In this document: positions 1-35,307 of the stretch, piece after piece | Layout: every line of letters begins with the position of its first letter | Position numbering within the stretch: position 1 is the stretch's first letter | Origin: an uncultured Gammaproteobacteria bacterium | GTDB lineage: Bacteria; Patescibacteriota; Patescibacteriia; UBA9934; GWF2-40-263 | Reading direction: 5' to 3' | NCBI GenBank assembly: GCA_964428465.1 | Contig: CAYRYG010000001.1 | Location: forward strand, 1-35,307 | Length of the DNA stretch: 35,307 nucleotides | Made by a program: the position numbers and the translations under genes | The notes under the pieces: generated by a model | Databases searched by the model: none | Told to the model about the DNA's origin: nothing | What the model saw: only the letters and a program-made list of their open reading frames with translations

Positions 1-1
1 G

Positions 2-520
2 CTCGGCGGGCTCACCCACCCGAACCCGCGCGCCTGGATCGCGGCCTACGCGCTCGCCTGGTGCGTGCGCGACCGCCTGCAGCACGCGGACCGCGAGGAC
101 ATGATCGACCGCCTGGTCGAACACCTCGACGGCCTCGAGCCGTACCACGACGACCGCGTGGCCGACCGCCTCCGGCTCCTGCGGCACCCGGCCACGCTCG
201 CGTCCGCCGAGGCGCTGCGCGAGTCCGTCGGTACGAGCTGCTACGCCATCGAGTCCGTCCCCTTCGCGATCGGCTCCTTCCTGCGCCACCCCGCCGACAT
301 CCGGACGGGCGCGCTCGAGGTGCTGAACGCGGGCGGCGACACGGACACCAACGTCGGCATGTACGCGCAGCTCGCCGGCGCGGACCAGGGCGTCGACGCC
401 ATCCCCTGGGACTGGCGCGAGCAGATCCCCGACGCGCGCCAGGCGCTCGCCATCGGCACGGCGCTCGGGCGTATGGTGATCCACAACGGCTTCGCCTACC
501 TTCACGAGCACTTCGTCTGA
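2..520 (+). CDS. ADP-ribosylglycohydrolase family protein, C-terminal part (5' end outside window)
   Basis: Frame 2 is open from the window edge to TGA 518-520. The translation carries the ARH/DraG-type signature NAGGDTDTN followed by AIPWDW. The listed ORF 65..520 is only the Met-initiated portion. Confidence 0.8.
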   Translation, partial: LGGLTHPNPRAWIAAYALAWCVRDRLQHADREDMIDRLVEHLDGLEPYHDDRVADRLRLLRHPATLASAEALRESVGTSCYAIESVPFAIGSFLRHPADIRTGALEVLNAGGDTDTNVGMYAQLAGADQGVDAIPWDWREQIPDARQALAIGTALGRMVIHNGFAYLHEHFV

Positions 521-524
521 CCCT

Positions 525-580
525 GGGAAGCGCCCGCTTCCCTCTTTGCCCGGGACCCCCACGCGGTTGTGGGGAGTCCG
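525..580 (+). promoter_or_regulatory. intercistronic module IE1 (hairpin A - CTCTTTGCC box - hairpin B)
   Basis: GGGAAGCG-cc-CGCTTCCC (525-542), box 542-550, then GGACCCCCAC-gcggtt-GTGGGG(a)GTCC (553-579). Confidence 0.6.
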
Positions 581-614
581 GAAAAAGACAACGCCCTTTT
601 GACACGGAGATACG

Positions 615-1907
615 ATGGCCCTGATCGACGCCGGTCTCGTCAAGCTGACGACCGAGTGGATTCTCACGTCCCTCGCGGACGTGGACGTCTACAAGATCTA
701 CATGCTGCAGCTCTACTTCCTGAAGCACCGCGCGGTGCGCGGGAAGTACGGGTTCAAGAACCGCACCATCCGGGTGCCGCTCGGCAGGACGCTCGACATC
801 GAGGAGATCCGCCGCCAGCTCGAGCACGCGCGCGATCTGCGGTTCACGGACGAGGTCATCCGATTCCTCGAGCTCGTGAGCGCGCAGCGCGGCGGCCTCT
901 TCCGCCCCGAGTTCCTCGAGTTCCTTCGGACGCTCCAGCTCTCACCGATCCACGTTTCCCTCTCGGAAGACGGCTCCCAGCTCGTCATCGAGACCGAGGA
1001 GGCGCCGCTCGTCGAGGCGATGCTCTGGGAGACGCTCGTCATGAACGTCGTCAACCGGATGTACTTCCTCGACAAGATGCGCGAGGAAGGCAAGACGGAG
1101 GACGACGCCTGGGCCGAGGGCGACCGGCGGCTTACCGCGAAGATCGCGAAGCTCAGGGAAGCGCTCGCGCGCGGCGTCCGCGTCCCGTTCATCGACTTCG
1201 GCACGCGCCGCCGGTGGTCGCTGGCCTGGCAGGAACACGTGCTCCGTCGCCTCATGGCGGAGGTGCCCGAGATCCTCATGGGCACGAGCAACGTGCTGCT
1301 CGCGACGAAGCTGGGAATCCCCGTGGTCGGCACCATGGCGCACGAATGCGACATGGCCTACCAGGGCATCTACCGCGCCGAAGACGACGCGGCGGGCCGC
1401 CTCGTGTCGCACGAGATCATGCTCGATGACTGGGCCGAGATCTACGGCGACAGGCTGTCGATCGCGCTGTCCGACACCTACGGCAGCGAGTATTTCTTCC
1501 GGACGTTCGGCGCCGAGCGCGCGGCGTTCTGGAAGGGCCTGCGCCAGGACTCGGGCGACGTCTACGACTGGGGCGAGCGATTCATCCGCTTCTACCTGGA
1601 CTTCGACATCGACCCGCGCACCAAGTCCGCGGTGTTCTCCGACGGCCTGGACGTCGACAAGATGATCGGCCTCGCCGAGCGGTTCGGCGGGCGGACGAAC
1701 ATCCTGTTCGGCTGGGGTACCGACCTCATGAACGACATGGGGTTCGACCCGCTGTCGATCGTCGTGAAGCTGATCTGGTGCGCGGGACACTGGCTCGTGA
1801 AGCTCTCCGACAACCTGAAGAAGGCCACCGGCCCCGCGGAGGCGGTCGAGCGCGTCACGCGTCTCTCCGACTACACCAACACCGCGGCCGAAGAGTGCCG
1901 CGTCTGA
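615..1907 (+). CDS. pncB: nicotinate phosphoribosyltransferase (Preiss-Handler step 1)
   Basis: 430 aa with PncB-type motifs DFGTRRR, GTSN, GTMAHE, SDTYG, RQDSGD, GWGT and KLSDN..KATG. GGAG lies 5 nt before the ATG. Confidence 0.9.
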   Translation: MALIDAGLVKLTTEWILTSLADVDVYKIYMLQLYFLKHRAVRGKYGFKNRTIRVPLGRTLDIEEIRRQLEHARDLRFTDEVIRFLELVSAQRGGLFRPEFLEFLRTLQLSPIHVSLSEDGSQLVIETEEAPLVEAMLWETLVMNVVNRMYFLDKMREEGKTEDDAWAEGDRRLTAKIAKLREALARGVRVPFIDFGTRRRWSLAWQEHVLRRLMAEVPEILMGTSNVLLATKLGIPVVGTMAHECDMAYQGIYRAEDDAAGRLVSHEIMLDDWAEIYGDRLSIALSDTYGSEYFFRTFGAERAAFWKGLRQDSGDVYDWGERFIRFYLDFDIDPRTKSAVFSDGLDVDKMIGLAERFGGRTNILFGWGTDLMNDMGFDPLSIVVKLIWCAGHWLVKLSDNLKKATGPAEAVERVTRLSDYTNTAAEECRV

Positions 1908-1967
1908 CGAGAACGTCTCGTCTCTTTTCTCCAGGCCCCGAGCACATCGCGTGTTCGAGGCCTGGAG
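1906..1967 (+). promoter_or_regulatory. intercistronic module IE2
   Basis: GACGAGA-acg-TCTCGTC (1906-1922, overlapping the pncB stop), TCTTTTCTCC box, then a long hairpin CTCCAGGCC...GGCCTGGAG (1929-1967). Confidence 0.6.
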
Positions 1968-1988
1968 CCGAAGACTGGGAGAACGAAC

Positions 1989-3035
1989 GTGCCCCCTTCC
2001 AACATCCTCATCGCCGTCGACGCGCCGGACCCGGACAACTTCGCCCTGGTCGTCGCGCTCAAGCGGCTGTACCCGAACGCCAGGCTGTGGGTGATGCTGA
2101 CGGGACGCCCCGTCCGCTTCAACGCCTCGCCCGAGCACCAGCTCTGGGACTGGGACATTCGCGACTCGCGGATGGCGCTCGAGGCCTCCGCCGCGCGGCT
2201 CCGGAACTTCGTGCGCCACTACGGCGTCCGGATCCCGGAGGTGTACGACGGCGGGATCGCCCCGCGTACCCTCATCCCGCACCACGTCCACTTCGCGGAC
2301 TACTACCGCTACCTGGACGTCGACCCGCTCGCGGCCATCGCGCACAGCGAGCTGGTGCCGCAGGAGGACCTGGTGCGCGAGCTGCTCGCCGTCCCGGAGG
2401 GATCGGTGATGGTCGCCATCGGCGGCCCCATGACCGGCCTGGCGCAGCTCATCGCCCGCCACCCGGCCGTGGCGTCGCGCTTCCGCGAGGTGCACGCGAT
2501 GTTCGCCACCTGGGGGAAGGTCGAGCTCATGCAGTTCGACGGCCCGCCGCGCGGCGCCCTGCAGTTCAACGTCGCGTGCGACCCGCAGGCCGCGTACCAC
2601 GTGCTCATGGGGCTCGCCTGCCCCGTGTACTTGCTGCCGTCGGAGGTGACGCGCGTGCAGGGCATCGGGTTCCAGAACGCGCAGGCGCTGATGGGCGCGA
2701 TCGAAAGCACGCCTGGCAACCAGCGGCTGTACCTGCTCTACTGCGCGTGGTACGACGCCGCGGTCAAGCCGCGCCAGGACCGGAACCCGAACGAGCTCAT
2801 CTTCATCCACGACCTGTCGGCCGGCTTCTCCGCGGATCCCGCGATCCGCGCCGACGTGTACGACATGGTGCCGGTGGAGATCACCTCGGTTCCCCACCTC
2901 CCCGCCGAGGCGGCGGACTGGGGCAAGGTGCTGATGCGCGAGACCGCGTCGCCCGGCAACCGCTTCGCGGCGAAGGGCCTCGTTCCGGGCGGCGAGAGCG
3001 CGTACCTCCACCACCTCCGCGCGCTCGTGCGCTGA
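1989..3035 (+). CDS. inosine/uridine-preferring nucleoside hydrolase-like protein (divergent, paralog 1)
   Basis: GTG start preceded by GGGAGA. It has an N-terminal Asp cluster IAVDAPDPDNF, GGPMTGLAQLI (compare GPLTNLA) and FNVACDPQAA (compare EFNixxDPEAA). The usual DD is replaced by DN. Confidence 0.6.
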   Translation: MPPSNILIAVDAPDPDNFALVVALKRLYPNARLWVMLTGRPVRFNASPEHQLWDWDIRDSRMALEASAARLRNFVRHYGVRIPEVYDGGIAPRTLIPHHVHFADYYRYLDVDPLAAIAHSELVPQEDLVRELLAVPEGSVMVAIGGPMTGLAQLIARHPAVASRFREVHAMFATWGKVELMQFDGPPRGALQFNVACDPQAAYHVLMGLACPVYLLPSEVTRVQGIGFQNAQALMGAIESTPGNQRLYLLYCAWYDAAVKPRQDRNPNELIFIHDLSAGFSADPAIRADVYDMVPVEITSVPHLPAEAADWGKVLMRETASPGNRFAAKGLVPGGESAYLHHLRALVR

Positions 3036-3042
3036 ACATCCT

Positions 3043-3097
3043 GCGACCCGAGCGGTCGCCTCTTTCCCACGAACGACGAATCCATCGCCGTTCGTGG
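3043..3097 (+). promoter_or_regulatory. intercistronic module IE3
   Basis: GCGACC-cgagc-GGTCGC (3043-3059), CTCTTTCCC box, then CCACGAACG-13 nt-CGTTCGTGG (3067-3097), followed by AAGGAG. Confidence 0.6.
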
Positions 3098-3115
3098 CCA
3101 AGGAGATTGGCACTC

Positions 3116-4309
3116 ATGACCACGCTCTCTCTGCTCGTACCTTCCCCCGCCGCGGACCGGATCGCCGCCGCCATGCGCGACCTCCCGTCCCGACTCCGGT
3201 GGCCCGGAACCGTCGGCTTCGAGGACAACACCCAGACCCCCGAGACCGAGTCGATGGGCGCCAAGCTCGTCGTCGGCGGGTCCGAGTGGACCATCCGCTG
3301 CAACCGCGCGGACATCCTCGTCGGCACGACGTTCCGCGACGATCCGACCCTGTCGCTCGTCGCCGCCGTGGACGTGTCCTGGTCGCCCGCGCTCGACGCC
3401 GAGGCCGGCGCGCTCTACGCGGTGCCGGCCTTCCGCGGCATCGAGGTGGTCGACGGCCCCGGGTCGCTCGACGACCTCTGCGCCGCGGTCGGCTTCGGCC
3501 GGCGCAAGATCACCGATGTCCCCGCGCGCCCCGACCCGGTCGAGGTGAGCATCAACGGGACGCCCGTCCCGGTCGAGGCGGCCCCCGGCGTCACCCCCAA
3601 GCAGTTCGAGAAGGCGCTCGCCTCCCCGAAGTTCACCGACTGGGTGGCGTCCGTCGACCCCGGCCTCACGGTGAAGCGGGTCACCATCCAGTCGGTCGAC
3701 CTGTTCGGGCCGAACGTGGGGTTCCTGAAGATCGTCGCCGACGTGTCGAAGGACGGCGCGTTCGTCCCCGGCATCTCGTTCATCCGCGGCGACTCGGTGG
3801 GAATCCTGGTCGTGCTGGTCTGCGACGACCGCGAGTACCTGCTGCTCACCGTGCAGCCGCGCTCCTCCGTCGGCAGCTCCGGCTTCGTCGAGATCCCCGC
3901 GGGGATGATGGACGGCTCGGGCAACTTCGTGGGCCAGGCCGCCAAGGAGCTCGGCGAGGAGGCCGAGATCCGCATCACCGAGGGCGACCTCACGGACCTC
4001 TCCACCGCGATCGCGCGGACCGAGGAGGACTTCAACGCGCCCGTGAGCTACGCGCTCTCCCCGGGCGGCTGCGACGAGTGCATGCGGTTCTTCGTCCACC
4101 GCAGGAGCGTCACCCGCGCGGAGCTCGCCGCGCTCGAGGGCAAGGCCACCGGCCTGCTCGAGGAGGGCGAGGTCATCACGCTCAAGGTGGTCCCGCTCGA
4201 CGGCCGGATCCGCCGCATCCCCGACGGCAAGACCCAGATCGCCGTCGGGCTGTACCAGGAGATCCGCACCCTCGAGATGCTCGGGTCCCAGATCCTGACC
4301 ACGCACTGA
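3116..4309 (+). CDS. ADP-sugar/ADP-ribose pyrophosphatase (NUDX14-like Nudix domain) fused to an unknown ~165-aa N-terminal domain
   Basis: ATG 3116 follows AAGGAG (3100-3105). Residues ~165-397 resemble plant NUDX14-type enzymes (VDLFGPNVGFLKIVADV..., VEIPAGMMDGSGNFVGQAAKELGEEAEI). The upstream part of listed ORF 1778..4309 overlaps two other genes and is not coding. Confidence 0.75.
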   Translation: MTTLSLLVPSPAADRIAAAMRDLPSRLRWPGTVGFEDNTQTPETESMGAKLVVGGSEWTIRCNRADILVGTTFRDDPTLSLVAAVDVSWSPALDAEAGALYAVPAFRGIEVVDGPGSLDDLCAAVGFGRRKITDVPARPDPVEVSINGTPVPVEAAPGVTPKQFEKALASPKFTDWVASVDPGLTVKRVTIQSVDLFGPNVGFLKIVADVSKDGAFVPGISFIRGDSVGILVVLVCDDREYLLLTVQPRSSVGSSGFVEIPAGMMDGSGNFVGQAAKELGEEAEIRITEGDLTDLSTAIARTEEDFNAPVSYALSPGGCDECMRFFVHRRSVTRAELAALEGKATGLLEEGEVITLKVVPLDGRIRRIPDGKTQIAVGLYQEIRTLEMLGSQILTTH

Positions 4310-4324
4310 CGCACCTTTCACCTT

Positions 4325-4381
4325 GGCGACCCCATGGTCGCCTCTTTCTCCCGGCCGCCCTCGTCATGAGGACGTTCGGGA
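4325..4381 (+). promoter_or_regulatory. intercistronic module IE4
   Basis: GGCGACC-ccat-GGTCGCC (4325-4342), TCTTTCTCCC box, then an imperfect hairpin TCCCG...CGGGA (4349-4381). Confidence 0.55.
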
Positions 4382-4415
4382 CAGAAGAACGCAGCAACCT
4401 TCAAGGAGCCGCCCA

Positions 4416-5555
4416 ATGGCTCGCGTCATCCCTCCGTGGCTCGAGGTCATCCCCCTCGTCCGCTCGCTCCTCGTCATCATGGATCCCGGCCGGGACCAGG
4501 ACGACGAGGACACGCTGGTCGCCCTCAACCGCTTCGTGCGGATGGGCCTCATGGACGTGCTCGGCGTGGTGGCGAACCTCGCGCCGTCCGCCAACCGCGC
4601 GCGCCTGGCCCGCGGTACGCTCGACACGCTCGGCCTGCCCGAGATCCCGGTCGGCATCGGCACGGGCTGCACGCAGCCCGACGACGACGGCATGGCCTAC
4701 CAGTGGGCCGTCAGCTACCTGTCCCCCGAGGACGCGGTGGTGGACGGCAAGACCCTTCTGCGTCGCACCCTCGAGGGCGCGCAGCCTGGGCAGATCGTGC
4801 TCGTGCTGCTCTCCGGGCTCACCGACGCCTACGAGATCATGCGCGAGGAGCCGGCGCTGTTCGCGTCGCGCGTCCGCCGCGTGGTGTTCATGGGCGGCGT
4901 CGAGGCGAGCGGCGACAGCGTGAAGGTGTACAAGGACGGCCGGTTCCGCCCGGACCCGACCGCCCAGAACGTGAAGTTCGACACCGACTCCGCGGGCGTG
5001 CTGTACAAGCAGCTCCAGCTCATGGGCATCCCCATGACGATCCTCACCCGCCACGCCGCCGCGGCCGCCAAGGTGCCGCGCGCCATCTACGACGAGATGG
5101 CCGACACCGGGCACCCGGTCGGCGTCCGGCTGCGCGAGGCGCAGAAGACGGCCATCGAGGAGCTCTGGCGCCGCGCCAACCTCCCGGACGGCCACGCGGA
5201 CCGCATGGGCCTGCCGGGCCGGTGCAACGCCGCCTGGTTCCGCGGGGCGTTCCTCGGCGGCCAGGGCGACGACCGCGGCGCGGACGACGGCATCTGGGAC
5301 CTCGTGCAGACGTTCATGCTGTACGACCCCATGACGCTATTCGCCGCCGTTCCGTCGCTGCGCGAGTACTTCTTCGAGCCCGAGGTGATCGAGGTGTGCG
5401 ACGCGAACGGCCACCCGGTCGAGCACCTGGTCATCGGCGTCTCCGCCGCGCGCCACGGCGTCTCGCATCCCGAGGAGCTCGCCTCGTACCTCACGAAGGC
5501 GCTCGTCGAGAGCCTCCAGATGTCGATCGCCGAGCCGGAGCGCCAGCGCGCCTGA
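4416..5555 (+). CDS. inosine/uridine-preferring nucleoside hydrolase-like protein (divergent, paralog 2)
   Basis: ATG 4416 follows AAGGAG. It has an N-terminal VIMDPGRDQDDED Asp cluster (DxDxGxDD-like), LSGLTDAYEI...VVFMGG and NVKFDTDSAG, which together resemble the IUNH fold. Confidence 0.6.
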   Translation: MARVIPPWLEVIPLVRSLLVIMDPGRDQDDEDTLVALNRFVRMGLMDVLGVVANLAPSANRARLARGTLDTLGLPEIPVGIGTGCTQPDDDGMAYQWAVSYLSPEDAVVDGKTLLRRTLEGAQPGQIVLVLLSGLTDAYEIMREEPALFASRVRRVVFMGGVEASGDSVKVYKDGRFRPDPTAQNVKFDTDSAGVLYKQLQLMGIPMTILTRHAAAAAKVPRAIYDEMADTGHPVGVRLREAQKTAIEELWRRANLPDGHADRMGLPGRCNAAWFRGAFLGGQGDDRGADDGIWDLVQTFMLYDPMTLFAAVPSLREYFFEPEVIEVCDANGHPVEHLVIGVSAARHGVSHPEELASYLTKALVESLQMSIAEPERQRA

Positions 5556-5568
5556 CCGTACCTTCCCT

Positions 5569-5630
5569 GTGATCCTTCGGGATCACTCTTTCCTCGAGAA
5601 CCGGACCGAGCCGTTCGGTCGGGTCCTCGA
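5569..5630 (+). promoter_or_regulatory. intercistronic module IE5
   Basis: GTGATCC-ttcg-GGATCAC (5569-5586), exact TCTTTCCTCGAG (5587-5598), then a long imperfect hairpin TCGAG...CTCGA (5594-5630). Confidence 0.6.
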
Positions 5631-5644
5631 TGGGAGAAGCCAGC

Positions 5645-5890
5645 ATGGCCGACAACTACGTTTTGGACAGCGACGGCTGCGGGACGCACTGCGACGACTG
5701 CGGCCATCCGGTGTGCCAGTGCGGTCGCATCGCCAGAAGCCAGCTGTTCGTCCAGCACTACGTGCTCGACTCCGACGGCTGCGGGTCCACCTGCGCCACC
5801 TGCGGCAAGGCCTGGACCGTCTGCTCCTGCCCGCACGCCGCGGACACGCGCCGCGGGCTCCTGGAGGAACTCGCCTCAACTGGGACGTAA
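5645..5890 (+). CDS. 81-aa Cys-rich mini-protein with an internal tandem duplication (YVLDSDGCGxxCxxCG...CxC, two copies)
   Basis: ATG 5645 follows GGGAGA. Ten Cys fall in two 22-24 aa repeats offset by 34 aa, each containing C-x3-C-x2-C. The gene sits in the same regular spacing and intercistronic module pattern as its neighbours. Confidence 0.6.
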   Translation: MADNYVLDSDGCGTHCDDCGHPVCQCGRIARSQLFVQHYVLDSDGCGSTCATCGKAWTVCSCPHAADTRRGLLEELASTGT

Positions 5891-5937
5891 CCGAGCGTCC
5901 CCTCTTTCCCCAAGCCGCCGAGACCTCTCCGCGGCTT
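5882..5937 (+). promoter_or_regulatory. intercistronic module IE6
   Basis: GGGACG-8 nt loop containing the TAA stop-CGTCCC (5882-5901), CTCTTTCCCC box, then AAGCCGC-12 nt-GCGGCTT (5912-5937). Confidence 0.6.
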
Positions 5938-5968
5938 AGGACGAAGACACCACACATCGGGGAGCAAG

Positions 5969-7135
5969 ATGCTCTTAGCACTCACGGCGTCCACCCAGGG
6001 CAAGAACCTCTTCGTGGACGGGATTCCTGGCCGCGGCACGGTCCAGGTGACCGAGGCGGAAATCGCCGCCGGGCTGTTCCTCGACAAGGAGCGGATCTTG
6101 CGCGTCGTTGCGCGGATCGACGGCCGCTCAACGGTCATCGAGGTCGTGGACGCGGACGGTGACACGCTCGCTCGCGCCCAGTCGCGCGGAAGGCGCGCCA
6201 CGCTCTCGTTCCGCCTGCCCAAGGCAACGGCCCTCGGCGACGCCGAGAAGGACCTCCTGCGCCAGCACGGCCGCGTGTACCGCGACGGCGACGCCACGGT
6301 CGTCGAGGTCATGGGCAAGGCCTGGCTCCTCAACGAGCCCGGCGTGACCTGCGCGAACCCGACCGCGCCGGAGCCGGACCGCGTCTACCGGAAGGTCTTC
6401 GCCAAGAAGAAGATCTACCTCCCGGACGAGTACGACCGCGCGGTCGCGGAGTGCCTGTCCGGCCGGGACGTGTTCGTCCTCGGCATGAACGGGTACAGCG
6501 CCATCAAGCCCGAGAAGTGCCGTGAGTACGGCATCGACCCGGGCGCGTACGAGATCGCGTGCGAGGAGCTGCTGGAGTTCGCCATCAGGTCGCTTCGGAC
6601 GGCGTTCCCGGACATCAGCGTCCGGGTGATCCACGGCTCGTCCGCGATGGGCGTGGACCTGGCGATCCAGCGCTGCGCGAGGCGGGTGCTGCGCGACAGC
6701 GAGCTGGGGTTCTCCTGCCCCGAGTACCTGTTCTACGTCCAGGACGACTCGTACCCCGTGTACGTCGCATCCAGCGTCCACGACTACTCGCAGTCGTTCG
6801 TGCGCTCGTGCAACGTGCTCATCGCGGCGAACGGTCGGCTCCAGGCCTTCCGCATGGACATCGCCGCCGTGTTCGAGCACGACAAGTACCTCATCCCGGT
6901 GAACGTGATCAAGCTGATCTCGCGCACCGGTTCCCCGGCGGCCAAGAACGCGCTGGGGCAGATCGAGGACGCGGTCGCGCACTACGAGCAGCGGGTGTTC
7001 CAGGTCGGCAAGCAGGTGACCGAGGGTACCGCGGCCGACCGCTGGAAGGCGACCGGCTCGGAGGTGCGCGACGTGCTCGTCAACATCGCCCGCCACGTCC
7101 TTCCCAAGGAGATCTCCTGGAAGCTCGGCGCCTAG
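5969..7135 (+). CDS. hypothetical protein; C-terminal half possibly a DprA/SLOG-like Rossmann nucleotide-binding fold
   Basis: 388 aa, ATG after GGGGAG. The motifs VFVLGMNGYS, VIHGSSAMGVDLAIQRCA and VLIAANGRLQAF resemble DprA/YpsA-type GxxxxG(I/V)DxxAxxxA plus a later strand-Gly motif. I do not recognise the N-terminal ~170 aa. Confidence 0.65.
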   Translation: MLLALTASTQGKNLFVDGIPGRGTVQVTEAEIAAGLFLDKERILRVVARIDGRSTVIEVVDADGDTLARAQSRGRRATLSFRLPKATALGDAEKDLLRQHGRVYRDGDATVVEVMGKAWLLNEPGVTCANPTAPEPDRVYRKVFAKKKIYLPDEYDRAVAECLSGRDVFVLGMNGYSAIKPEKCREYGIDPGAYEIACEELLEFAIRSLRTAFPDISVRVIHGSSAMGVDLAIQRCARRVLRDSELGFSCPEYLFYVQDDSYPVYVASSVHDYSQSFVRSCNVLIAANGRLQAFRMDIAAVFEHDKYLIPVNVIKLISRTGSPAAKNALGQIEDAVAHYEQRVFQVGKQVTEGTAADRWKATGSEVRDVLVNIARHVLPKEISWKLGA

Positions 7136-7148
7136 CCCGGCTCCCCGT

Positions 7149-7204
7149 CGTGTCCGCCCGGACACGGCCTCTTTCCTCGAGCCGCCGAATCGTCGGCGTC
7201 TCGA
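7149..7204 (+). promoter_or_regulatory. intercistronic module IE7
   Basis: CGTGTCC-gccc-GGACACG (7149-7166), exact TCTTTCCTCGAG (7170-7181), then TCGAG-c-CGCCGA-atcg-TCGGCG-t-CTCGA (7177-7204). Confidence 0.6.
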
Positions 7205-7225
7205 TCCAAGGAGCTCGAACCTTTC

Positions 7226-8182
7226 ATGCCGACGGATCCCAGAATCAGCCACGGCGGCGGGCAGATGCGCGCGCAGTCGTTCTCCGTGCAGGTCTCGACC
7301 CGCACGCGCTGCAACGCCGGGTGCCAGTTCTGCATCTCGCGGACCACGCCCGGCACCGAGACCCCGGACAGCCCGGGCGCGCTGCGGTTCTGCGACGAGG
7401 CACGCCTGCGCGTCGGGCTCAACTATGCCCGCGCGCTCGGCGCCACACACGCCATCCTGACCGGCAAGGCGGACCCCACGCAGGAGGATTCCCTGTACCT
7501 TACCCGGCTCATCGACACCGCCCGCGAGTACCTGCCGCTGTGCGACATGCACACCAACGGCTTCCTGCTCCAGCCCGGCAAGATGCGCGAGAACCTGCTC
7601 GCGGAGCTCGTGGCCGCGGGACTCACCATGGTGACGTTCTCGGTCGCGAGCTTCGATCCGGGTGAGAACCGCACGCTCATGGGGATCAGGCAGGACCCGC
7701 GCGCGCTCATCGCGCAGGCTTGCGACCTCGGCCTGCTCGTCCGCTGCTCGCTCGTCATGAACGAGCGCGGCGTGCGCGACGTGGCCGGCGTGCTCGACTA
7801 CGTGAAGACCGCCGGCGAGCTCGGCGCGCACATGGTGGTCGTCCGCGAGGTGTGGAGGCCCAAGGTGTACGGCGTCTGGAACAAGGACGTCTTCGACTGG
7901 AACCACGCCAACGCCATTCCCCTTCCGCCGATCCAGGACGCCATCCTCGCGATCGCGTCCGAGGGCGGCAACCCGCGGGGCCTGCAGGTGCTCGATCCCC
8001 TTCCGTGGGGAACGCCGGTGCTCGGCATGGGCGGGGTGTTCCGCGACCCGTCCCACGGGGTGAACCTCACCTTCGCGCTGTGCGAGGAGGCGACGGTCGG
8101 CGCGGTGCTCAAGTCCGTGGTGCACATGCCCGACGGGCACGGCTACCGCAACTGGAACCACAAGGCCGAGATCCTCTACTAG
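7226..8182 (+). CDS. radical SAM enzyme, single [4Fe-4S] motif, no SPASM/twitch Cys cluster
   Basis: CNAGCQFC (C-x3-C-x2-C) at nt 7310-7333, in a MoaA/PqqE-like context (RTRCNAGCQFC, ILTGKADPT, HTNGFLL, TFSVASFDP). The start is uncertain: ATG 7226 lies 12 nt after AAGGAG, and ATG 7265 is an alternative. Confidence 0.85.
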   Translation: MPTDPRISHGGGQMRAQSFSVQVSTRTRCNAGCQFCISRTTPGTETPDSPGALRFCDEARLRVGLNYARALGATHAILTGKADPTQEDSLYLTRLIDTAREYLPLCDMHTNGFLLQPGKMRENLLAELVAAGLTMVTFSVASFDPGENRTLMGIRQDPRALIAQACDLGLLVRCSLVMNERGVRDVAGVLDYVKTAGELGAHMVVVREVWRPKVYGVWNKDVFDWNHANAIPLPPIQDAILAIASEGGNPRGLQVLDPLPWGTPVLGMGGVFRDPSHGVNLTFALCEEATVGAVLKSVVHMPDGHGYRNWNHKAEILY

Positions 8183-8239
8183 GGAGACCGTCTCCCTTCT
8201 TTCCTCGAGCCCTTGAACACATCACGTGTTCGAGGCCTC
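8182..8239 (+). promoter_or_regulatory. intercistronic module IE8
   Basis: GGGAGA-ccg-TCTCCC (8182-8196, abutting the TAG stop), exact TCTTTCCTCGAG (8198-8209), then a hairpin around GAACAC-atcac-GTGTTC (8207-8239). It shares a 21-nt core with IE2. Confidence 0.6.
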
Positions 8240-8277
8240 AAGACAAAGAACCGCTCATTCTTCATCGGAGTCATCCC

Positions 8278-10455
8278 ATGTACGCTCCCCGCGTGTTCGC
8301 CCTCGACCGCAAGACGCACGGCTTCGTCCGCGTCGGCACGATCGTGCCGAAGGTCATCCCGCAGGCCATCGACTACAACGTCGGCCAGATGGTCGCGATG
8401 GCAAGGGACGCCGCCGCGAAGGGCGTCCAGGTGGCCTTGTTCCCGGAACTCGGGATCACGGGCTACTCGTGCCGCGACGCGTTCCACGACCTCGCGTTCA
8501 TCGACAACGCGCGGCTCGGCCTGCTCCGCTTCGTCGAGGAGACGAAGGGGCTCGGGACCGTATTCTTCGTCGGCCTGCCGTTCCCGGTCAACGGGACGCT
8601 CTACAACGTGGCGGCGGTCGTCAACCGCGGGAAGATCCTCGGGTTCGTCCCGAAGTCCTTCATCCCGACGTACGGCCCGCACGAGGAACGCCGCTGGTTC
8701 GCCTGCGCCGACCACCTGAACGTGGGCATGGTCCGGCTCCAGGGCCACGATGGCGAGATCCCGATGGGAACCAACATCCTCGTGGACGTCGAGAGCGACA
8801 CGGACGCGTCGATCATCACGGTCGGCGTGGAAATCTGCGAGGACGGCTGGCACCGCCGGAGCCCCTCGGGGCTGCAGGCGGCCAACGGCGCGCTGCTGTG
8901 CGTCAATCTGTCGGCGTCCCCGTGGATCGTCGGCAAGGACGAGTACCGCCACATGATCTTCGGGGCCCTCTCCGGCGACATCATCGGGGCGTACGCATAC
9001 TGCGCGTGCGGCCACGGCGAATCCACGGACGACGTGGTGGTGGACGGCGACGCGTTCGTCGCCCAGAACGGGTCGATCCTGGCCTCCTCGGAGCGCTGGA
9101 ACCGGCACGGCCAGATCGTCATCGCGGACATCGACGCCGAGTCGCTCATGCGCGAGCGCTGGGTGACCGGCACGTTCGCCGAGGTGGCCGCGACCAACCG
9201 GGCCGCGTACCGCCACGTGGTGGCGCACGTCGCCGAGCTCAAGCTCGAGTCGAAGTCGGCCTACGCGCCGCCCCAGCTCGAGCTGATCGATGGCGGGCAA
9301 AGCGCCCACCTGAAGTTCACGGCCCCGAGCGGCGGCAACCGCGCCCTGCGCCGCGCCGTCACGCGCAAGCCCTTCGTCCCCCGCGACCCGGAGACGATGG
9401 ACAAGCGCTGCCGCGACATCATCTCGGGCGTCGGCCAGGGCCTCATGGTGAGGCTCGAGTCCATGGCCCGCTCGCAGCTCGTGCGCGAGGGCAAGAACCC
9501 GTACGTCGAGGCGCTCCCGCCGCAGCACGTCTACTACGGCCACTCCGGCGGCCGCGACTCGACGTTCGTCGGCGAGGTGATCCTCTGGGTGTACGACCAG
9601 CTCGGCTGGGACAGGAAGTTCATCCACGCCGTGCGCATGCCCGGCCCGGCCTCCTCCGACTCGACGCAGGACCTGTCGCTGCGCCGCTGCACCCTGGCGG
9701 GCGTGGACGTCATCACCAACCCGATCGAGGACCACACCGCGCGGCTGCTGCGTTCCGAGGGCCACGAGCCGTGTTGGAACAACCCCGACCCGGCGAAGCG
9801 CCGGTGCGGGCGGTGCCAGAATGCCCAGGCCCGCGTCCGCACGCTCATCCTGATGACGTACGGGTTCGTGGTCGGCACCGGCGATCTCACCGAGATCATG
9901 ACCGGTTGGTGCACGTACAACGGCGACCACATGTCGATGTACAACCCGAACGCGGGCGTGCCGAAGACGCTGGTCGAGCACCTCATCCGCTGGATCGCCA
10001 TGAACTGGCGGACCGGCGAGGAGCGGCAGGTGCTGCTCGAGATCCTGGCGGAGATCGTCTCCCCCGAGCTCGTGAAGGCGCTGCCCGGCGAGGCGATCCA
10101 ATCGACGGAGGACGAGGACGGTCCGATCCAGCTCAAGGACTTCTTCATCTACTGGTTCCGCCGCCACGGCGCGAGCCCGACGAAGATCGCCTACCTCGCG
10201 GAGATTGCCTTCGCGCAGGTCGAGGACGAGGGCGACGAGACCTACGACCGCGCCACGATCCTGAAGTGGCTGCGCCGGTTCTTCGCCAAGTTCCAGGAGG
10301 CGCAATTCAAGCGCAACGCCGCCCCGTCCGGCCCGCTCATGGGCTCGGTCGGCGCGTCGCAGCGCGGCAACCTGCGCTGGCACTCCGACGCCGACATCGG
10401 CGCCTGGATCGCCGAGATCGACCGCCTCATCGCCGACCTCGCGCGCGCCGCCTGA
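8278..10455 (+). CDS. nadE: glutamine-dependent NAD+ synthetase (CN-hydrolase domain + NAD synthase domain)
   Basis: 725 aa. The nitrilase-type E/K/C context is present (LFPELGITGY, VPKSFIP, GVEICEDGW). The ATP-PPase P-loop is YYGHSGGRDST, followed by NAQARVRTLILM. ATG 8278 follows GGAG. Confidence 0.9.
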   Translation: MYAPRVFALDRKTHGFVRVGTIVPKVIPQAIDYNVGQMVAMARDAAAKGVQVALFPELGITGYSCRDAFHDLAFIDNARLGLLRFVEETKGLGTVFFVGLPFPVNGTLYNVAAVVNRGKILGFVPKSFIPTYGPHEERRWFACADHLNVGMVRLQGHDGEIPMGTNILVDVESDTDASIITVGVEICEDGWHRRSPSGLQAANGALLCVNLSASPWIVGKDEYRHMIFGALSGDIIGAYAYCACGHGESTDDVVVDGDAFVAQNGSILASSERWNRHGQIVIADIDAESLMRERWVTGTFAEVAATNRAAYRHVVAHVAELKLESKSAYAPPQLELIDGGQSAHLKFTAPSGGNRALRRAVTRKPFVPRDPETMDKRCRDIISGVGQGLMVRLESMARSQLVREGKNPYVEALPPQHVYYGHSGGRDSTFVGEVILWVYDQLGWDRKFIHAVRMPGPASSDSTQDLSLRRCTLAGVDVITNPIEDHTARLLRSEGHEPCWNNPDPAKRRCGRCQNAQARVRTLILMTYGFVVGTGDLTEIMTGWCTYNGDHMSMYNPNAGVPKTLVEHLIRWIAMNWRTGEERQVLLEILAEIVSPELVKALPGEAIQSTEDEDGPIQLKDFFIYWFRRHGASPTKIAYLAEIAFAQVEDEGDETYDRATILKWLRRFFAKFQEAQFKRNAAPSGPLMGSVGASQRGNLRWHSDADIGAWIAEIDRLIADLARAA

Positions 10456-10483
10456 CGAGACGCGCAGGCTGAATCCTGCGGCT

Positions 10484-10513
10484 ACCCGCTCAACGAGAGC
10501 GGGTTTTTCTTTC
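10484..10513 (+). terminator. intrinsic terminator ending the NAD gene string
   Basis: ACCCGCTC-aacga-GAGCGGGT followed by TTTTCTTTC. An extra hairpin precedes it at 10463-10480. Confidence 0.8.
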
Positions 10514-10522
10514 GTCAAATGG

Positions 10523-10551
10523 TTGACAATCCGTCTCGCGCGTGATACACA
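10523..10551 (+). promoter_or_regulatory. sigma70-type promoter of the CPBP gene
   Basis: TTGACA - 17 nt - TACACA, with a TGn extended -10. Confidence 0.55.
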
Positions 10552-10582
10552 TTCCCTCCGTCAGCCACAAGGAGGCCGTGAC

Positions 10583-11284
10583 GTGACCGCAACTTCCAAA
10601 CAGCGCAACTACCTCTGGGCGAGCTTCACCTCGCTGATCATGATCGGGATCGTGAAGCACTTCTGGCCCGACCTCATCCCATTCGGCTTCTGGGACCTGT
10701 GGAAGGCCCCGCATGGCGTGTGGGCGGGAGTGCTGGCCGGATGGCCCATCCTCGCCTGGGGCGGGTTCCACTTCCTGCGCACCTGGATCTTCGTCGACGA
10801 GAACCACTACGCGCTCGCCTACGCCAACGCGTGGGACACCTTCGTCAACGGGCTGAAGATCAGCGCCTGGGCCGGGATCACCGAGGAGATCGCCTTCCGC
10901 TGGCTCATCTTCCTCGGGGCCATGCCGTCGCTCGTGCTCGGCAACTTCCTGTTCTTCGGCTGCCTCGGATTCGGCTTCGCGGAGTGGTTCCACCTCCACG
11001 TGTGGGGCGCGCTCGCGAACTGGACGACGTTCGGCATCCTCGAGCCGCAGATCTTCGACCCGCGGATGTGGTACGTCGGAGCCGCCCTGCTGTACTCGAA
11101 CGCGTTCTTCCGGGAAGGCCACGCCTACCAGGGGATCATCGGGATCATCAACTCGTGGTTCCTCGGCATGGGGTTCTTCTACCTCACCTTCAACTACGGC
11201 CTCGGCTCGGCGATCATCGTGCACTTCCTGTACGACGTGCTGATCTTCTCCGGCATGGCCGCGGCCATCGCCAAGCGGTCCTGA
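10583..11284 (+). CDS. CPBP family intramembrane glutamic endopeptidase (CAAX protease/Abi-like)
   Basis: GTG 10583 lies 7 nt after AAGGAGG. The protein is multi-TM and has the three CPBP motifs: EEIAFR, FREGH (FxxxH) and HFLYD (HxxxD). Confidence 0.8.
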   Translation: MTATSKQRNYLWASFTSLIMIGIVKHFWPDLIPFGFWDLWKAPHGVWAGVLAGWPILAWGGFHFLRTWIFVDENHYALAYANAWDTFVNGLKISAWAGITEEIAFRWLIFLGAMPSLVLGNFLFFGCLGFGFAEWFHLHVWGALANWTTFGILEPQIFDPRMWYVGAALLYSNAFFREGHAYQGIIGIINSWFLGMGFFYLTFNYGLGSAIIVHFLYDVLIFSGMAAAIAKRS

Positions 11285-11292
11285 CCGCCTTC

Positions 11293-11323
11293 CCCGCCAA
11301 CGTACGGCGGGTTTTTCTTTTTT
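11293..11323 (+). terminator. intrinsic terminator after the CPBP gene
   Basis: CCCGCC-aacgtac-GGCGGG followed by TTTTTCTTTTTT. Confidence 0.8.
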
Positions 11324-11329
11324 GTGAAT

Positions 11330-11361
11330 CAAAAAAGCCGGCGGGTGTGGAACCCTCCGGC
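11330..11361 (-). terminator. intrinsic terminator after gene 11366..12508
   Basis: Hairpin 11337-11361 (GCCGG/CCGGC outer stem) with a T-tract on the reverse strand (AAAAAA 11331-11336 on +). Confidence 0.65.
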
Positions 11362-11365
11362 AGGT

Positions 11366-12508
11366 CTACGTCGCGACGAGCGCGGCGATCTCGTCGGCCT
11401 TCCGCTGGCGCCACGCGGCGGCGGCCTCGCGGATCTTTCCCGCGGACCACGAGCCGATGTGGGTTCGCGGCGGCCTGGCCCCCCGCGCCTCGCCCTCGTA
11501 CGGCGCGTCCATGGGCTTGGCTTCCACGAGGGCGACGGCCGCGAGGATCCGCGGCGTGACCGGGACGCCCGGAAGCGACAGCGCGTAGAGGACGTTCTGG
11601 GTGAGGTGCTCGCAGATGAACGTCCCGCCCCAGCGCTCGAGATACTCCGCGAGCGCGTCGAGGACGCGCGGGTCGTCGGGCCAGGCCCTGGCGATCCGCA
11701 GCGCCTCGTCGTACGCGGACGCGCGGTCCGTGAACACGGTGAGGAAGTCCGCGAGGAAGTGCTCGCCGATCGCCGCCCGGATCCGCGCGGCGAGCGCCGG
11801 GTTCCCGTACCCTTCCTCGCCGAACGGTCCGGACAGGTGCTGGATGAGCGCTGTGCGGTACCGGCACTCGGCATGGTTCGAAGACTTGAACTCGGACTCG
11901 CACTGGGCGTCGTCGACGCGGAACGTCACCGCGCGCCGGATCTCCGCCTGGAGCTCCGGCCCGCACTGCGCGATGCCGACCACGAGCGCGAACGCCGCGA
12001 GCGCCTTGGGGACGGTGTCCGGATACGTTCCCTTGTGGTTCCCGCCGACGGGACGCTGGACGTAGGGGGCGCGGTAGGCGGCGAGCAGGAACTCGGCGTG
12101 GTTCGGCAGGTTGTCCGCGATGGCCAGGATGGCCGCGTCGCGGACGCGCGAGTGGGGCGCGACGGCGTTGTCCCAGAGAAGCGCGAACGCGCGCTCGTCG
12201 GGCAGGAAGCGCCCGAGCGCGCGGGCCGAGGCTTCGCGCTGGGCCTGATCGCAGCAGTCGACGATGGCGAACGGGAGGAACCCCGCGCCCGCCTTCTCAT
12301 CGTCGTCCAACGCGTCTATGCGCCCCTTGACCGCGGCGATGAGCCGGCGGCTGAGCGGGTGCTCGCTGCGCGCGACCCCGACCAGCTCGGCGATGAGCAC
12401 GTCACGGATCTCGGCCCGCTCCACAAGCGGCGCGAGGATCTGGTCGGCCTCCGCGGCCGACAACTTCTCGACGAAAAAGACCTCGGGAATGAGCGGTTCG
12501 ACGGACAT
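11366..12508 (-). CDS. hypothetical protein (helical, no family recognised)
   Basis: 380 aa. ATG 12508 lies 4 nt after GGAGG. It has its own promoter (12560-12588) and terminator (11330-11361). Confidence 0.7.
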   Translation of the reverse strand: MSVEPLIPEVFFVEKLSAAEADQILAPLVERAEIRDVLIAELVGVARSEHPLSRRLIAAVKGRIDALDDDEKAGAGFLPFAIVDCCDQAQREASARALGRFLPDERAFALLWDNAVAPHSRVRDAAILAIADNLPNHAEFLLAAYRAPYVQRPVGGNHKGTYPDTVPKALAAFALVVGIAQCGPELQAEIRRAVTFRVDDAQCESEFKSSNHAECRYRTALIQHLSGPFGEEGYGNPALAARIRAAIGEHFLADFLTVFTDRASAYDEALRIARAWPDDPRVLDALAEYLERWGGTFICEHLTQNVLYALSLPGVPVTPRILAAVALVEAKPMDAPYEGEARGARPPRTHIGSWSAGKIREAAAAWRQRKADEIAALVAT

Positions 12509-12632: not shown

Positions 12633-12755
12633 ATGATCCCTATGTCCAACTTCACCGCCAAAATCATGGACATCCAGTATCCGGCCTTCCAGGCCTGGGT
12701 TGATGGTTCGCGCTGCGCGCGGATGGGCTTTTCGCTGATTTCGACGACGGCATAA
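12633..12755 (+). CDS. possible leaderless 40-codon upstream ORF (MIPMSNFTAKIMDIQYPAFQAWVDGSRCARMGFSLISTTA)
   Basis: The ATG lies 11 nt after the TATGAT -10 box of a near-consensus promoter. The stop codon sits in a small hairpin followed by the GTTTCCCTCGAG box and a second hairpin. There is no homology support. Confidence 0.25.
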   Translation: MIPMSNFTAKIMDIQYPAFQAWVDGSRCARMGFSLISTTA

Positions 12756-12808
12756 CGCCGGTTTCCCTCGAGACCAGACCAAAGCCCGGCCGCAGTGAGC
12801 CGGGCTTT
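12748..12808 (+). promoter_or_regulatory. IE-like module in the ABC exporter leader
   Basis: A weak 4-bp hairpin CGGC-ataac-GCCG with TAA in the loop, GTTTCCCTCGAG box (12761-12772), then a perfect 10-bp hairpin AAAGCCCGGC-8 nt-GCCGGGCTTT (12781-12808), followed by GGAGG and TTG 12828. Confidence 0.4.
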
Positions 12809-15194: not shown

Positions 15195-15215
15195 ACGCCA
15201 GGCGGGTTTTTCTTT
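15186..15215 (+). terminator. intrinsic terminator after the GNAT gene
   Basis: CCCGCCTG-loop-CAGGCGGG followed by TTTTTCTTT. The stop codon lies inside the stem. Confidence 0.8.
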
Positions 15216-16240: not shown

Positions 16241-16268
16241 CCCAAAGAAAAAGCCGGCCATGGGCCGG
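16241..16268 (-). terminator. intrinsic terminator after gene 16270..16641
   Basis: Reverse strand reads CCGGCC-cat-GGCCGG followed by CTTTTTCTTTGGG. Confidence 0.75.
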
Positions 16269-21306: not shown

Positions 21307-21330
21307 AAAGCGCCCCTTGCGGGGCGCTTT
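21307..21330 (-). terminator. csp terminator hairpin
   Basis: AAAGCGCCCC-ttgc-GGGGCGCTTT. On the reverse strand it is preceded by a TCTTTTCCTC box directly after the csp stop. Confidence 0.7.
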
Positions 21331-21340
21331 GAGGAAAAGA

Positions 21341-24193: not shown

Positions 24194-25405
24194 TCACCGG
24201 TCGAACGAGGGCGGGACGCGCGAGAGACGGCCGAAGAGGAACGTCACGGCCGCGGTCAGCAGGAAGGCGATCCAGAATTCGAACGCGCCGCCGAGCGCGA
24301 GGAGCGCCGCGAGCATGGCGACGCGCCCGAACGAGAGTGCCATCTCGCGCAGGACGGTATACTCGTCGACGTAATGCCCCGCGTCGGCGGCTTTCTCGTA
24401 CATGAGCGCCTCGAACGGCGTGCGCATGAGGATCAGCGCGAAGCTGTGGAGCGTCCCGAACAGGATGACGTGCGCGACGGAGCTCACGAACGCCTTCAGG
24501 ACCCAGCCGACGGCGGACAGGTTCATGCCGACGGACAGCAGGCGCCCGCGGTGGCGCTCCCCGTCGACGAGCCGGCCGACGACGAGCTGCAACGCGATGC
24601 TGAGCAGCCCGACCACGGTGGTCACCAGCCCCGCCTGCACGTACTCCCCGCGCAGCAGCTCGAACAGGAACACCGGCCACACGAAGAACCCGACCACGCT
24701 CTCGGCCCCTTCCGTCGCGAAGAGAAAGAGGAACCGGCGGCGGCGCGGCGCGAACAGCTCCCGGAATGTCTGGACGAACCCGAACTCATACCGTTCCTTC
24801 CCGGCATGCACGCGCCCGATCGGGATCACCGACGCGAGGACGACGAGCATCGCCGACACGAACAGGACCGGGTATCCGTACGTCTGGATCACCCATCCCG
24901 AAAACGTCGGGAGCACGATGCTGACCAGCGACCCCGCGGCCGCGATGGCACCGATCACCGTCCCGAGCCTGTGTCCCTGTCCTTCCTCCGCGAACTCGGT
25001 GTGGTACGGGACCCAGTACACGACGTGCCACGCCACGAGCGCCGCGACGCTCGACGCCGCGACCAAGAACACAGGCACGAGATCCCCGAGCGCGAGCGTG
25101 ACGAAGAAGCACACGTAGAGCGCCGTGCCGAGCCGAAGCGCGTTCTTCAGCCCGATGCGCGTCATCAGCATGGCGCCGAGCGGCTCGAGCAGGCCCGCCA
25201 GCAAGTAGTAGACGAGCGCGTACCACAACACCGCCGCGATGCTCCGGTCGAACAGCTGGTACAGGAACATCGGCAGGAACAACCCGAGCATCGCGGCGCC
25301 CGTTTGGATCAGAATGCGATGCCAGGCGAGCGCGGAAAGGCCCGCGTGTACGCTCGAGGGACGCTCCGGGCGCGGGAACGGGGTCGATGAGACGCGAACG
25401 GTCAT
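24194..25405 (-). CDS. MFS transporter
   Basis: About 12 TM segments with a typical MFS layout. ATG 25405 lies 4 nt after the upstream stop. The listed TTG 25426 would overlap the upstream gene. Confidence 0.8.
   Translation of the reverse strand: MTVRVSSTPFPRPERPSSVHAGLSALAWHRILIQTGAAMLGLFLPMFLYQLFDRSIAAVLWYALVYYLLAGLLEPLGAMLMTRIGLKNALRLGTALYVCFFVTLALGDLVPVFLVAASSVAALVAWHVVYWVPYHTEFAEEGQGHRLGTVIGAIAAAGSLVSIVLPTFSGWVIQTYGYPVLFVSAMLVVLASVIPIGRVHAGKERYEFGFVQTFRELFAPRRRRFLFLFATEGAESVVGFFVWPVFLFELLRGEYVQAGLVTTVVGLLSIALQLVVGRLVDGERHRGRLLSVGMNLSAVGWVLKAFVSSVAHVILFGTLHSFALILMRTPFEALMYEKAADAGHYVDEYTVLREMALSFGRVAMLAALLALGGAFEFWIAFLLTAAVTFLFGRLSRVPPSFDR

Positions 25406-33489: not shown

Positions 33490-35307
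<1,818 letters not shown>

Follow-up and report, generated by a model that had tools for sequence, protein, structure and literature searches.

A covarying hairpin, UCUUU box and hairpin module at the gene junctions of an NAD-salvage operon in a Patescibacteria bacterium

In a 35,307-nt stretch of DNA from an uncultured Patescibacteria bacterium (referred to below as the window; 65.7% GC), nine co-oriented genes of an NAD-salvage operon occupy positions 2-10455 of the + strand (open reading frame table and Pfam), and all eight junctions between them carry the same composite element: a GC-rich hairpin (hairpin A), a UCUUU box (TCTTT in the DNA) and a second, longer hairpin (hairpin or stem B), always in this order. 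The module is about 65-75 nt long, lies on the sense strand, and is found at three further junctions upstream, on contig L009 (99.98% identical to the window across the shared part), so that at least 11 modules follow one another. Covariation supports it well as an RNA element. More than 50 instances are known from the present analysis, none of Rfam's families corresponds to it, and it punctuates the genes of NAD-salvage islands in this bacterium and its relatives. The explanation that we favor, with a probability of roughly 45%, is that each module would act as a weak intrinsic terminator, possibly modulated by the ribosome, and 3' stabilizer, joined to a stem that takes up the U-tract and, in many cases, the Shine-Dalgarno sequence of the following gene, and would so tune and insulate the expression of each gene.

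A first-pass annotation of this DNA had described a hairpin, a pyrimidine box and another hairpin in every spacer, and this order holds at all eight positions. Hairpin A comprises 6-9 bp with a loop of 3-6 nt, within the range used to recognize intrinsic-terminator hairpins (5-14 bp and a short loop), and starts between -6 and +18 nt relative to the first base of the stop codon; as had been noted, the stop codon lies within the hairpin or at its edge in three cases, namely junctions 2, 6 and 8. The box starts 0-1 nt after hairpin A. The annotation described a second hairpin beginning inside the box, but it missed that in the structures computed with RNAfold the box itself is paired to a run of purines further downstream (AAAGA, GAAGA or AAGGA), which closes a single irregular stem directly against hairpin A, with no linker between the two. 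Stem B spans 40-52 nt and contains 15-22 bp (median 18), with bulges, and the mean pairing probability of the box is 0.74 versus about 0.31 when the downstream sequence is dinucleotide-shuffled. Two classes can be distinguished among some 60 modules by the distance from the purine arm to the start codon. In class I, which makes up about half, the Shine-Dalgarno sequence itself (CCAAGGAG, GGTGAAGA, ACGGAGGA) serves as the arm, 0-14 nt from the start; in class II the arm lies 21-29 nt upstream of the start and is followed by a conserved spacer, CGCYCWTTY, and then by a separate Shine-Dalgarno sequence. The modules of the window, with their scores under the covariance model described below, are as follows.

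525-588, +, junction 1 (ADP-ribosylglycohydrolase to NaPRT): hairpin A 525-542; box 543-547; stem B (46 nt, 17 bp) closed by GAAAAAGA ending at 588; separate Shine-Dalgarno, class II; 27.3 bits
1906-1974, +, junction 2 (NaPRT to nucleoside hydrolase): hairpin A 1906-1922, with the stop codon inside it; box 1923-1927; apex GAGCACAT..GTGTTCGAG; GAAGA 1970-1974; stem B 52 nt, 21 bp; 56.9 bits
3043-3105, +, junction 3: hairpin A 3043-3059; box from 3061, within CTCTTT 3060-3065, which pairs with the Shine-Dalgarno AAGGAG 3100-3105, class I; 24.8 bits
4325-4388, +, junction 4: hairpin A 4325-4342; box 4343-4347; stem B closed by AGAAGA ending at 4388, class II; 34.7 bits
5569-5637, +, junction 5: hairpin A 5569-5586; box 5587-5591; the closing GGGAGA is the Shine-Dalgarno, class I; stem B 51 nt, 20 bp; 41.7 bits
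5882-5947, +, junction 6: hairpin A 5882-5901, with the TAA stop at its stem-loop edge; box 5903-5907; GAAGA 5943-5947; 36.8 bits
7147-7212, +, junction 7: hairpin A 7147-7168; box 7170-7174; closed by the Shine-Dalgarno AAGGA, class I; CTCTTTCCTCGAGCCGCC at 7169-7186; 46.2 bits
8181-8249, +, junction 8 (radical SAM to NadE): hairpin A 8181-8197, overlapping the TAG stop; box 8198-8202; apex GAACACAT..GTGTTCGAG; AAAGA 8245-8249, class II; 57.4 bits

To assess covariation, 33 modules from five loci were aligned by sequence alone with G-INS-i and padded with N; a default MAFFT alignment was inconsistent with the structure and was discarded. Standard base pairs form in 90.5% of the cells of this alignment, compared to 66.2% after shuffling and 44-58% when the pairing partners are slid along the sequence, and 185 cells are changed on both sides of a pair (71.5 shuffled, 25-60 slid). 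The resulting covariation score of 0.651 was reached by none of 500 shuffles (0.242) and stands against 0.10-0.21 for slid partners. Double-sided changes affect all seven pairs of hairpin A and all ten pairs of hairpin B, and the five box-arm pairs are 100% paired, with U-A to U-G as the sole changes, a figure that is partly built in. The stems covary freely and the invariant positions across modules are TCTTT plus a G and an A in the purine arm. At individual junctions, hairpin A of junction 2 is the same or differs by one base in relatives with 61-96% protein identity, and junction 5 displays a compensatory change, from CCGAG/TTCGG to CCAAG/TTTGG, in the related locus L001. The junction before nadE has a consensus structure in seven lineages that includes conserved G-U pairs, which argues for an RNA element acting on the sense strand. 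The sense strand also folds more stably than the antisense strand in 23 of the 33 modules (p = 0.03), and the folding energy of the modules has a mean z-score of -4.7 relative to dinucleotide shuffles.

Shuffled sequence, which the first-pass annotation had named as the control for such arrangements, does not reproduce the repetition of the box either: the 8-mer CTCTTTCC has five matches against 0.89 expected, and 0 of 100 shuffles reach five. Seven of the 11 copies of CTCTTT on both strands of the 35 kb window lie within junctions. The shared strings listed in the annotation are all present, with three exact copies of TCTTTCCTCGAG at 5587, 7170 and 8198 and nowhere else in the window, CACATC[G/A]CGTGTTCGAGGCCT at 1943-1963 and 8218-8238, and AGCCGCCGA at 5913 and 7180, the last with an additional copy on the minus strand (24384-24392).

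The annotation had further proposed building a covariance model and had supposed that the element might be genome-wide rather than confined to the island. The model (R1) finds exactly the eight junctions in the window, at 24.8-57.4 bits, together with weak antisense echoes, and in loci outside the training set it recognizes dozens of sense-strand junctions (L018, L019, L020), a few in L015 (48% GC) and, as one weak match, one in L016 (43% GC). The dozens of additional matches come from NAD islands on related Candidatus Uhrbacteria contigs of 64-67% GC, whereas those at 43-48% GC are fewer and weaker. Among the relatives with 60-69% GC the module is present in nearly every spacer of at least 55 nt, and some junctions of the 48% and 43% GC loci carry it as well; at lower GC the box takes the form CCUUUUCUCC. 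With filters off, nothing in 10400-35307 of the window scores above 10.2 bits (E 0.28), and neither of the two look-alikes proposed outside the island survives, as the site after csp (21307-21340) reaches only 6.9 bits (E 1.9) and the ABC exporter leader (12748-12808) is not among the matches. No matches at E up to 1 occur in the flanks of L004, L016 and L019, and by a count from the open reading frame table the module occurs in 8 of 8 junctions of the island and in none of the 12 same-strand junctions across the remaining 25 kb of the window. Within the roughly 45 kb of flank examined, the element is island-specific. A search of Rfam 15, NAD+ riboswitches included, gave no matches at gathering thresholds, and relaxing it to E up to 10 for positions 400-10700 added a terminator look-alike and noise. 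An NAD+ riboswitch was rejected on this lack of an Rfam signal and on the lack of conserved loops. Two scans of viral contigs for the module patterns gave no matches and hence no sign of phage origin, and the literature searched contains no description of the module.

The reading of hairpin A and the box as a weakened terminator, already suggested in the first-pass annotation, is partly supported by their geometry. The box follows the hairpin at 0-1 nt, but the tract has 4-6 T in 9 nt where an intrinsic terminator has a U-tract of about 7-9 nt directly after its hairpin, and the TransTermHP-type tail score of the modules, -3.3, lies between -4.6 for full terminators of the lineage and -1.9 for random sequence. 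A generic terminator scan flags five of the eight junctions, a hairpin of type A followed by TCTTTTTTTTT closes an operon in L002, and the UCUUU of the modules is also contained in the full terminators of the lineage (UUUUUCUUU). The window operon itself ends in a full intrinsic terminator (10484-10512, +), a hairpin followed by TTTTTCTTT. This exact string had been reported as the tail of the strong terminators, and all four canonical terminators of the window have it, at 10504-10512, 11312-11320 and 15207-15215 on the + strand and at 16244-16252 on the - strand; the corresponding tail in the relatives is ATTTTTCTTTTG. This terminator signature is unusually fixed and specific to the lineage. 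The box looks like the TTTTTCTTT tail without its first four U residues. In Bacillus subtilis, TTNTTT is the motif for NusG-dependent pausing and termination (PMC8060035). The TTCTTT of the full terminators matches it, and the modules carry CTCTTT or TTCTTT, which resemble it.

The absence of a -35/-10 pair from the spacers is borne out, as no sigma-70-like promoter is predicted on the + strand of positions 1-12000, and none at module junctions of the window or L019; promoter-like sites appear only after full terminators. Given at least 11 modules in series and no promoter at the scanned junctions, any termination at each module must be weak. The computed read-through over 11 modules to nadE is 31% if each module terminates 10% of transcripts and 9% if each terminates 20%.

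On the basis of these data, we propose that the module works in two parts. Hairpin A and the near-invariant UCUUU are laid out like an intrinsic terminator whose U-tract has been cut short, and would stop a small fraction of polymerases; with the hairpin so near the stop codon, it may be subject to modulation by the ribosome that terminates there. On RNA that is read through, UCUUU pairs with the purine run and closes stem B against hairpin A. Each cistron would thereby gain structure at its 3' end and at its ribosome-binding site, the latter also being partly occluded, and transcription would fall by a small step from one cistron to the next. The fixity of the box could reflect two constraints acting jointly, being U-rich after a hairpin and being complementary to Shine-Dalgarno-like purines. 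As a by-product, the repeated box acts as a short-homology joint for the loss or gain of genes. A stronger version, in which the module would be a "cistron connector" of these bacteria that combines, in about 70 nt, a ribosome- or NusG-gated attenuator, a processed insulator supplying every gene with standard hairpins at its 5' and 3' ends, and a short-homology joint through which genes could enter and leave a hypervariable NAD-salvage super-operon with no need of an integrase, appears doubtful to us; if true, it would be a natural counterpart of synthetic-biology insulators and a recombinase-free analogue of integron cassettes.

Several observations weigh against the favored explanation. The U-tract has only 4-6 U in 9 nt, with a C right after the hairpin at three junctions of the window, and the read-through estimate puts termination per module at most at about 10-20%, which weakens the case for termination as the selected function. 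A plain weak terminator needs neither a fixed pentamer nor a stem B constrained in size (40-52 nt). In about 15% of the modules hairpin A starts more than 18 nt past the stop codon, so gating by the ribosome cannot be universal, and in class II modules the box leaves the Shine-Dalgarno sequence unoccluded. Shine-Dalgarno accessibility is lower after modules than for flank or first genes (0.25 versus 0.39, p = 0.0025), which speaks for occlusion, but the comparison set includes a 43% GC locus; likewise, the perfect box-arm pairing counts for less than it appears to because the sequences were trimmed at the minimum-free-energy partner of the box.

A comparison of related loci connects the module to changes in gene content. 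The window organism lacks 2388 bp, comprising two DUF1152 genes, that are present in L001, and the two blastn segments that align it with L001 overlap on exactly 18 nt, CTCTTTCCTCGAGCCGCC (7169-7186). Junction 7 of the window therefore consists of hairpin A from L001 junction 8 and hairpin B from L001 junction 10. Nucleotide identity between the two strains falls from 96.4% to 89.3% in one step, right at the junction 7 box (L001 6793/9182 versus L009 11201-11218), which indicates a mosaic made by recombination at this module. More distant relatives retain a DUF1152 gene at the position of junction 7, therefore the deletion of the two genes in the lineage of the window is the most likely course of events. 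A second indel, of a gene for a 159 aa protein with its module, has its breakpoint past the purine arm and not at the box. In L018 (11285-12545), the same hairpin A, GACGAGAACGTCTCGTC, recurs at three consecutive junctions, after NaPRT and after two genes with 167 aa products; we read this as a putative tandem duplication of gene plus module. No recombinase was recognized in the Pfam scan of the window proteins, so that short-homology recombination would be sufficient.

Among the alternatives, we regard as somewhat unlikely, though deserving of serious consideration, that the module is primarily a joint for RNA processing and stability, in which RNase III or another double-strand endonuclease would cut stem B, or a single-strand endonuclease would cut the box. 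The upstream cistron would then end in a protective hairpin A and the downstream one would keep a remnant of B and a freed Shine-Dalgarno sequence, turning the operon into individually stabilized mRNAs, an outcome compatible with weak termination. Such a joint would explain why stem B keeps to a narrow size, about two helical turns, despite entirely different sequences from one junction to the next, as well as the direct contact of A and B; B-like hairpins are also found ahead of first genes after promoters, as in L018 junction 12. Processing would in addition account for the use of Shine-Dalgarno sequences occluded by the box, and it removes the difficulty posed by a row of 11 terminators. 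It does not by itself explain, however, why a U-rich box strictly follows hairpin A or why TCTTT recurs in full terminators. A site for RNase III would have a mostly double-stranded stem of about 20 bp or more; stem B comes near this with its 15-22 bp, but many B stems are bulged, with fewer than 20 uninterrupted base pairs. A purely translational role seems improbable. The box would then be a cis-acting anti-Shine-Dalgarno sequence, opened through coupling with the ribosome on the preceding gene, by a helicase or protein S1, or by temperature, in keeping with the identity of purine arm and Shine-Dalgarno in about half of the modules, the accessibility below that of flank genes, and the stop codon at or inside hairpin A in many modules. 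The class II arms, 21-29 nt upstream of the start and followed by a separate Shine-Dalgarno sequence, do not fit this role; moreover, a ribosome at the stop codon melts A rather than the base of B, and the strict adjacency of hairpin A and box is left without a function.

We consider it very unlikely that the module is primarily a DNA-level element, either an attC-like site for cassette recombination or a palindromic, selfish repeat akin to REP, BIME or MITE elements that spread through the island. The exact coincidence of the 2388 bp indel and the identity step with the 18 nt repeat points in this direction, as do the occurrence of the same hairpin A types after different genes, the putative duplication in L018, and a gene content that varies among all the islands examined. 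An 18 nt direct repeat is nevertheless enough for an ordinary short-homology deletion, and the second indel breaks elsewhere. Pfam reveals no integrase or transposase among the window proteins scanned, there is no core sequence of attC type, and the module is absent from about 25 kb of flank; its register is fixed relative to stop codons and ribosome-binding sites, and the strand-specific box, the conserved G-U pairs and the stabler sense strand all point to RNA. The chances are equally slim that the box is bound by a factor in trans, whether an attenuation protein in the style of PyrR or TRAP or a boxA-type complex of NusB and NusE, that ties read-through at every junction to NAD status. The near-invariance of UCUUU between two freely varying hairpins would suit a protein-binding site, CUCUUU is common to the box and the core of boxA, and the ADP-ribose-responsive regulator NrtR heads the island in relatives, but the dual structural constraint already explains the invariance. 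The boxA consensus is GCUCUUUAACAA, present as one copy near the start of an operon. Beyond CUCUUU the module box shares nothing with it, having C/U-rich sequence in place of the AACAA half and occurring at every junction, whereas antitermination signals normally stand once per operon, upstream of terminators; membership in the boxA/nut family was rejected on these grounds. NCBIfam and Pfam recognize no RNA-binding protein among the unannotated island proteins. The NrtR operator is a 21 bp palindrome in which the regulated sites share a GT-N7-AC core (PMC2330246). Hairpin B was rejected as such an operator, as its sequence differs between junctions and its GAACAC-N5-GTGTTC apex has an AC-N5-GT core with conserved G-U pairs. 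Mimicry of the 16S rRNA 3' end, considered because a GGATCAC hairpin A followed by a pyrimidine tail resembles GGAUCACCUCCUUUCU, was put down to coincidence, this being only one of about eight hairpin A types.

Parts of the module have counterparts in known systems. Internal terminators set the stoichiometry of ABC transporters in Clostridia (PMC9045158), and the terminator between mccA and mccB is controlled by the ribosome (PMC4231749). These share with the module a GC-rich hairpin after a stop codon and a U-containing tract inside an operon without a downstream promoter, and by analogy graded expression and a stable 3' end would be expected. Unlike them, the module occurs at every junction, at least 11 in series, with a fixed UCUUU and few U residues, and its U-tract doubles as the 5' side of another conserved stem, in which the following Shine-Dalgarno sequence is often contained. 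The RNase III hairpins of the phage T7 early genes (R0.3, R1.1 and others) are likewise irregular, of about 20 bp and present in each intercistronic spacer of a long polycistronic transcript; following the same analogy, cleavage would leave a hairpin at the upstream 3' end and could free the downstream ribosome-binding site. The module differs from the T7 sites in that it belongs to a cellular operon and has a separate upstream hairpin A and a conserved U-rich box. A sequence-specific T-pattern at the junction of hairpin and U-tract is shared with NusG-dependent termination at TTNTTT (PMC8060035), although most modules match five of the six positions and a motif of B. subtilis may not apply to this lineage.

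Resemblances at the DNA level are more partial. REP/BIME, ERIC, MIRU and Correia elements are also palindromic units between co-transcribed genes and can stabilize upstream mRNA and promote rearrangements. They are, however, dispersed genome-wide and conserved in sequence, whereas the module hairpins vary, with 5 nt fixed, and are confined to one island within the sequence examined; REP/BIME membership was rejected, with no dispersal in about 45 kb of flank and no shared palindromic sequence. Like integron cassettes, the island consists of promoterless open reading frames, each with a hairpin-forming site, and has hypervariable gene content and one indel bounded by a repeated site. Unlike integrons, it has no recognized integrase, attI or Pc promoter and no R/L core GTTRRRY, and its signal is strand-specific and at the RNA level. 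An attC cassette array was rejected accordingly: Pfam shows no integrase among 30 window proteins, the Pfam annotations listed for the related loci include none either, and the 33-module alignment contains no attC core sites (R''/L''-L'/R', GTTRRRY).

Internal terminators, intercistronic processing hairpins and Shine-Dalgarno-occluding stems are thus known kinds of elements; what is new is that the composite architecture is fixed, that in a lineage of the candidate phyla radiation (CPR, Patescibacteria) it recurs at essentially all junctions of a long operon, and that it has a role as a cassette joint. To our knowledge, CPR bacteria are uncultured, their gene regulation is almost unknown, and they typically lack de novo NAD synthesis; an NAD-salvage island is something that an organism without such synthesis would depend on. 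The module provides a specific model of how internal tuning could work in long operons of this group that lack promoters inside them, how a lineage-specific terminator signature could be shortened into an internal signal, and how repeated regulatory joints can drive cassette-like turnover of genes. If its parts behave as proposed, they could also serve as compact natural insulators for operon engineering.

Two short conserved stretches in and next to stem B deserve separate mention. Before nadE, the apex of hairpin B, YTTGARCACAT-N3-5-GTGTTCGAG, keeps its sequence in seven lineages, G-U pairs included, and is reused at other junctions; its locations are window 8211-8235 and 1938-1960, L018 junction 17, L019 junction 14 and L020 junction 13. 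As this conservation exceeds what structure alone requires, the apex may be in specific contact with a protein or an RNA. The pyrimidine-rich CGCYCWTTY lies 4-8 nt before the Shine-Dalgarno sequence (window 590-600 and 8253-8262; L018 junction 8, L019 junctions 9 and 14, L020 junction 4) and could form a second, small stem that occludes it.

The genes of the window island are arranged as follows, all on the + strand.

Genes 1-3: ADP-ribosylglycohydrolase (truncated at the window edge); NaPRT; nucleoside hydrolase
Genes 4-6: Nudix-like protein; a second nucleoside hydrolase, XopQ-like; an 81 aa Cys-rich protein
Genes 7-9: a 388 aa protein without a Pfam family; a radical SAM protein; glutamine-dependent NAD synthetase (NadE)

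Contig L009 carries the operon further upstream, with a PurA-like gene, PncA and a fusion of NMN-adenylyltransferase and NAD kinase. Judged by its sequence matches, the organism belongs to Candidatus Uhrbacteria: a NaPRT homologue with 70% identity is named from 'Ca. Uhrbacteria bacterium RIFOXYB12_FULL_58_10', and a conserved junction string matches a metagenome-assembled genome of a 'Patescibacteria group bacterium'. Relatives were found by searches with the 388 aa protein and NaPRT, and their protein identity to the window extends down to 51-61%. All of them have NAD islands, with nrtR as the first island gene in relatives and a gene content that differs from island to island. Across L009, L001, L002, L004, L015, L016, L018-L020 and window 1-10455, the island forms a super-operon of 12-20 genes for NAD salvage and ADP-ribose metabolism, with hypervariable accessory genes for DUF1152, radical SAM, His_Phos_1, PRPP-synthetase-like and PP2C proteins and several family-less proteins.

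The 388 aa protein (5969-7135) has no Pfam or NCBIfam family and its close relatives are confined to these islands. A pattern scan for it gave no matches in the genome collection or in viral contigs, and homologues shorter by about 90 residues (35-56% identity), always unannotated, exist in other CPR bacteria and in Melainabacteria or Obscuribacter. The model NF041355, for the type III effector XopQ, recognizes the second nucleoside-hydrolase-like protein (4416-5555) at E 1.2e-47, under the curated cutoff, which fits a role on ADP-ribose or a nucleotide and not in the ordinary salvage of nucleosides. The 81 aa protein (5645-5890) has four Cys-X2-Cys pairs arranged as two repeats and no family assignment, and is kept in the islands of the window organism, L001 and L018. 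Far from the island, a 602 aa protein (33490-35298, - strand) combines six stretches of collagen triple-helix repeats with a peptidoglycan-binding domain, and several PAS or MASE1 histidine kinases are encoded near it, a set of signalling and surface equipment that exceeds what we would expect of a CPR genome.

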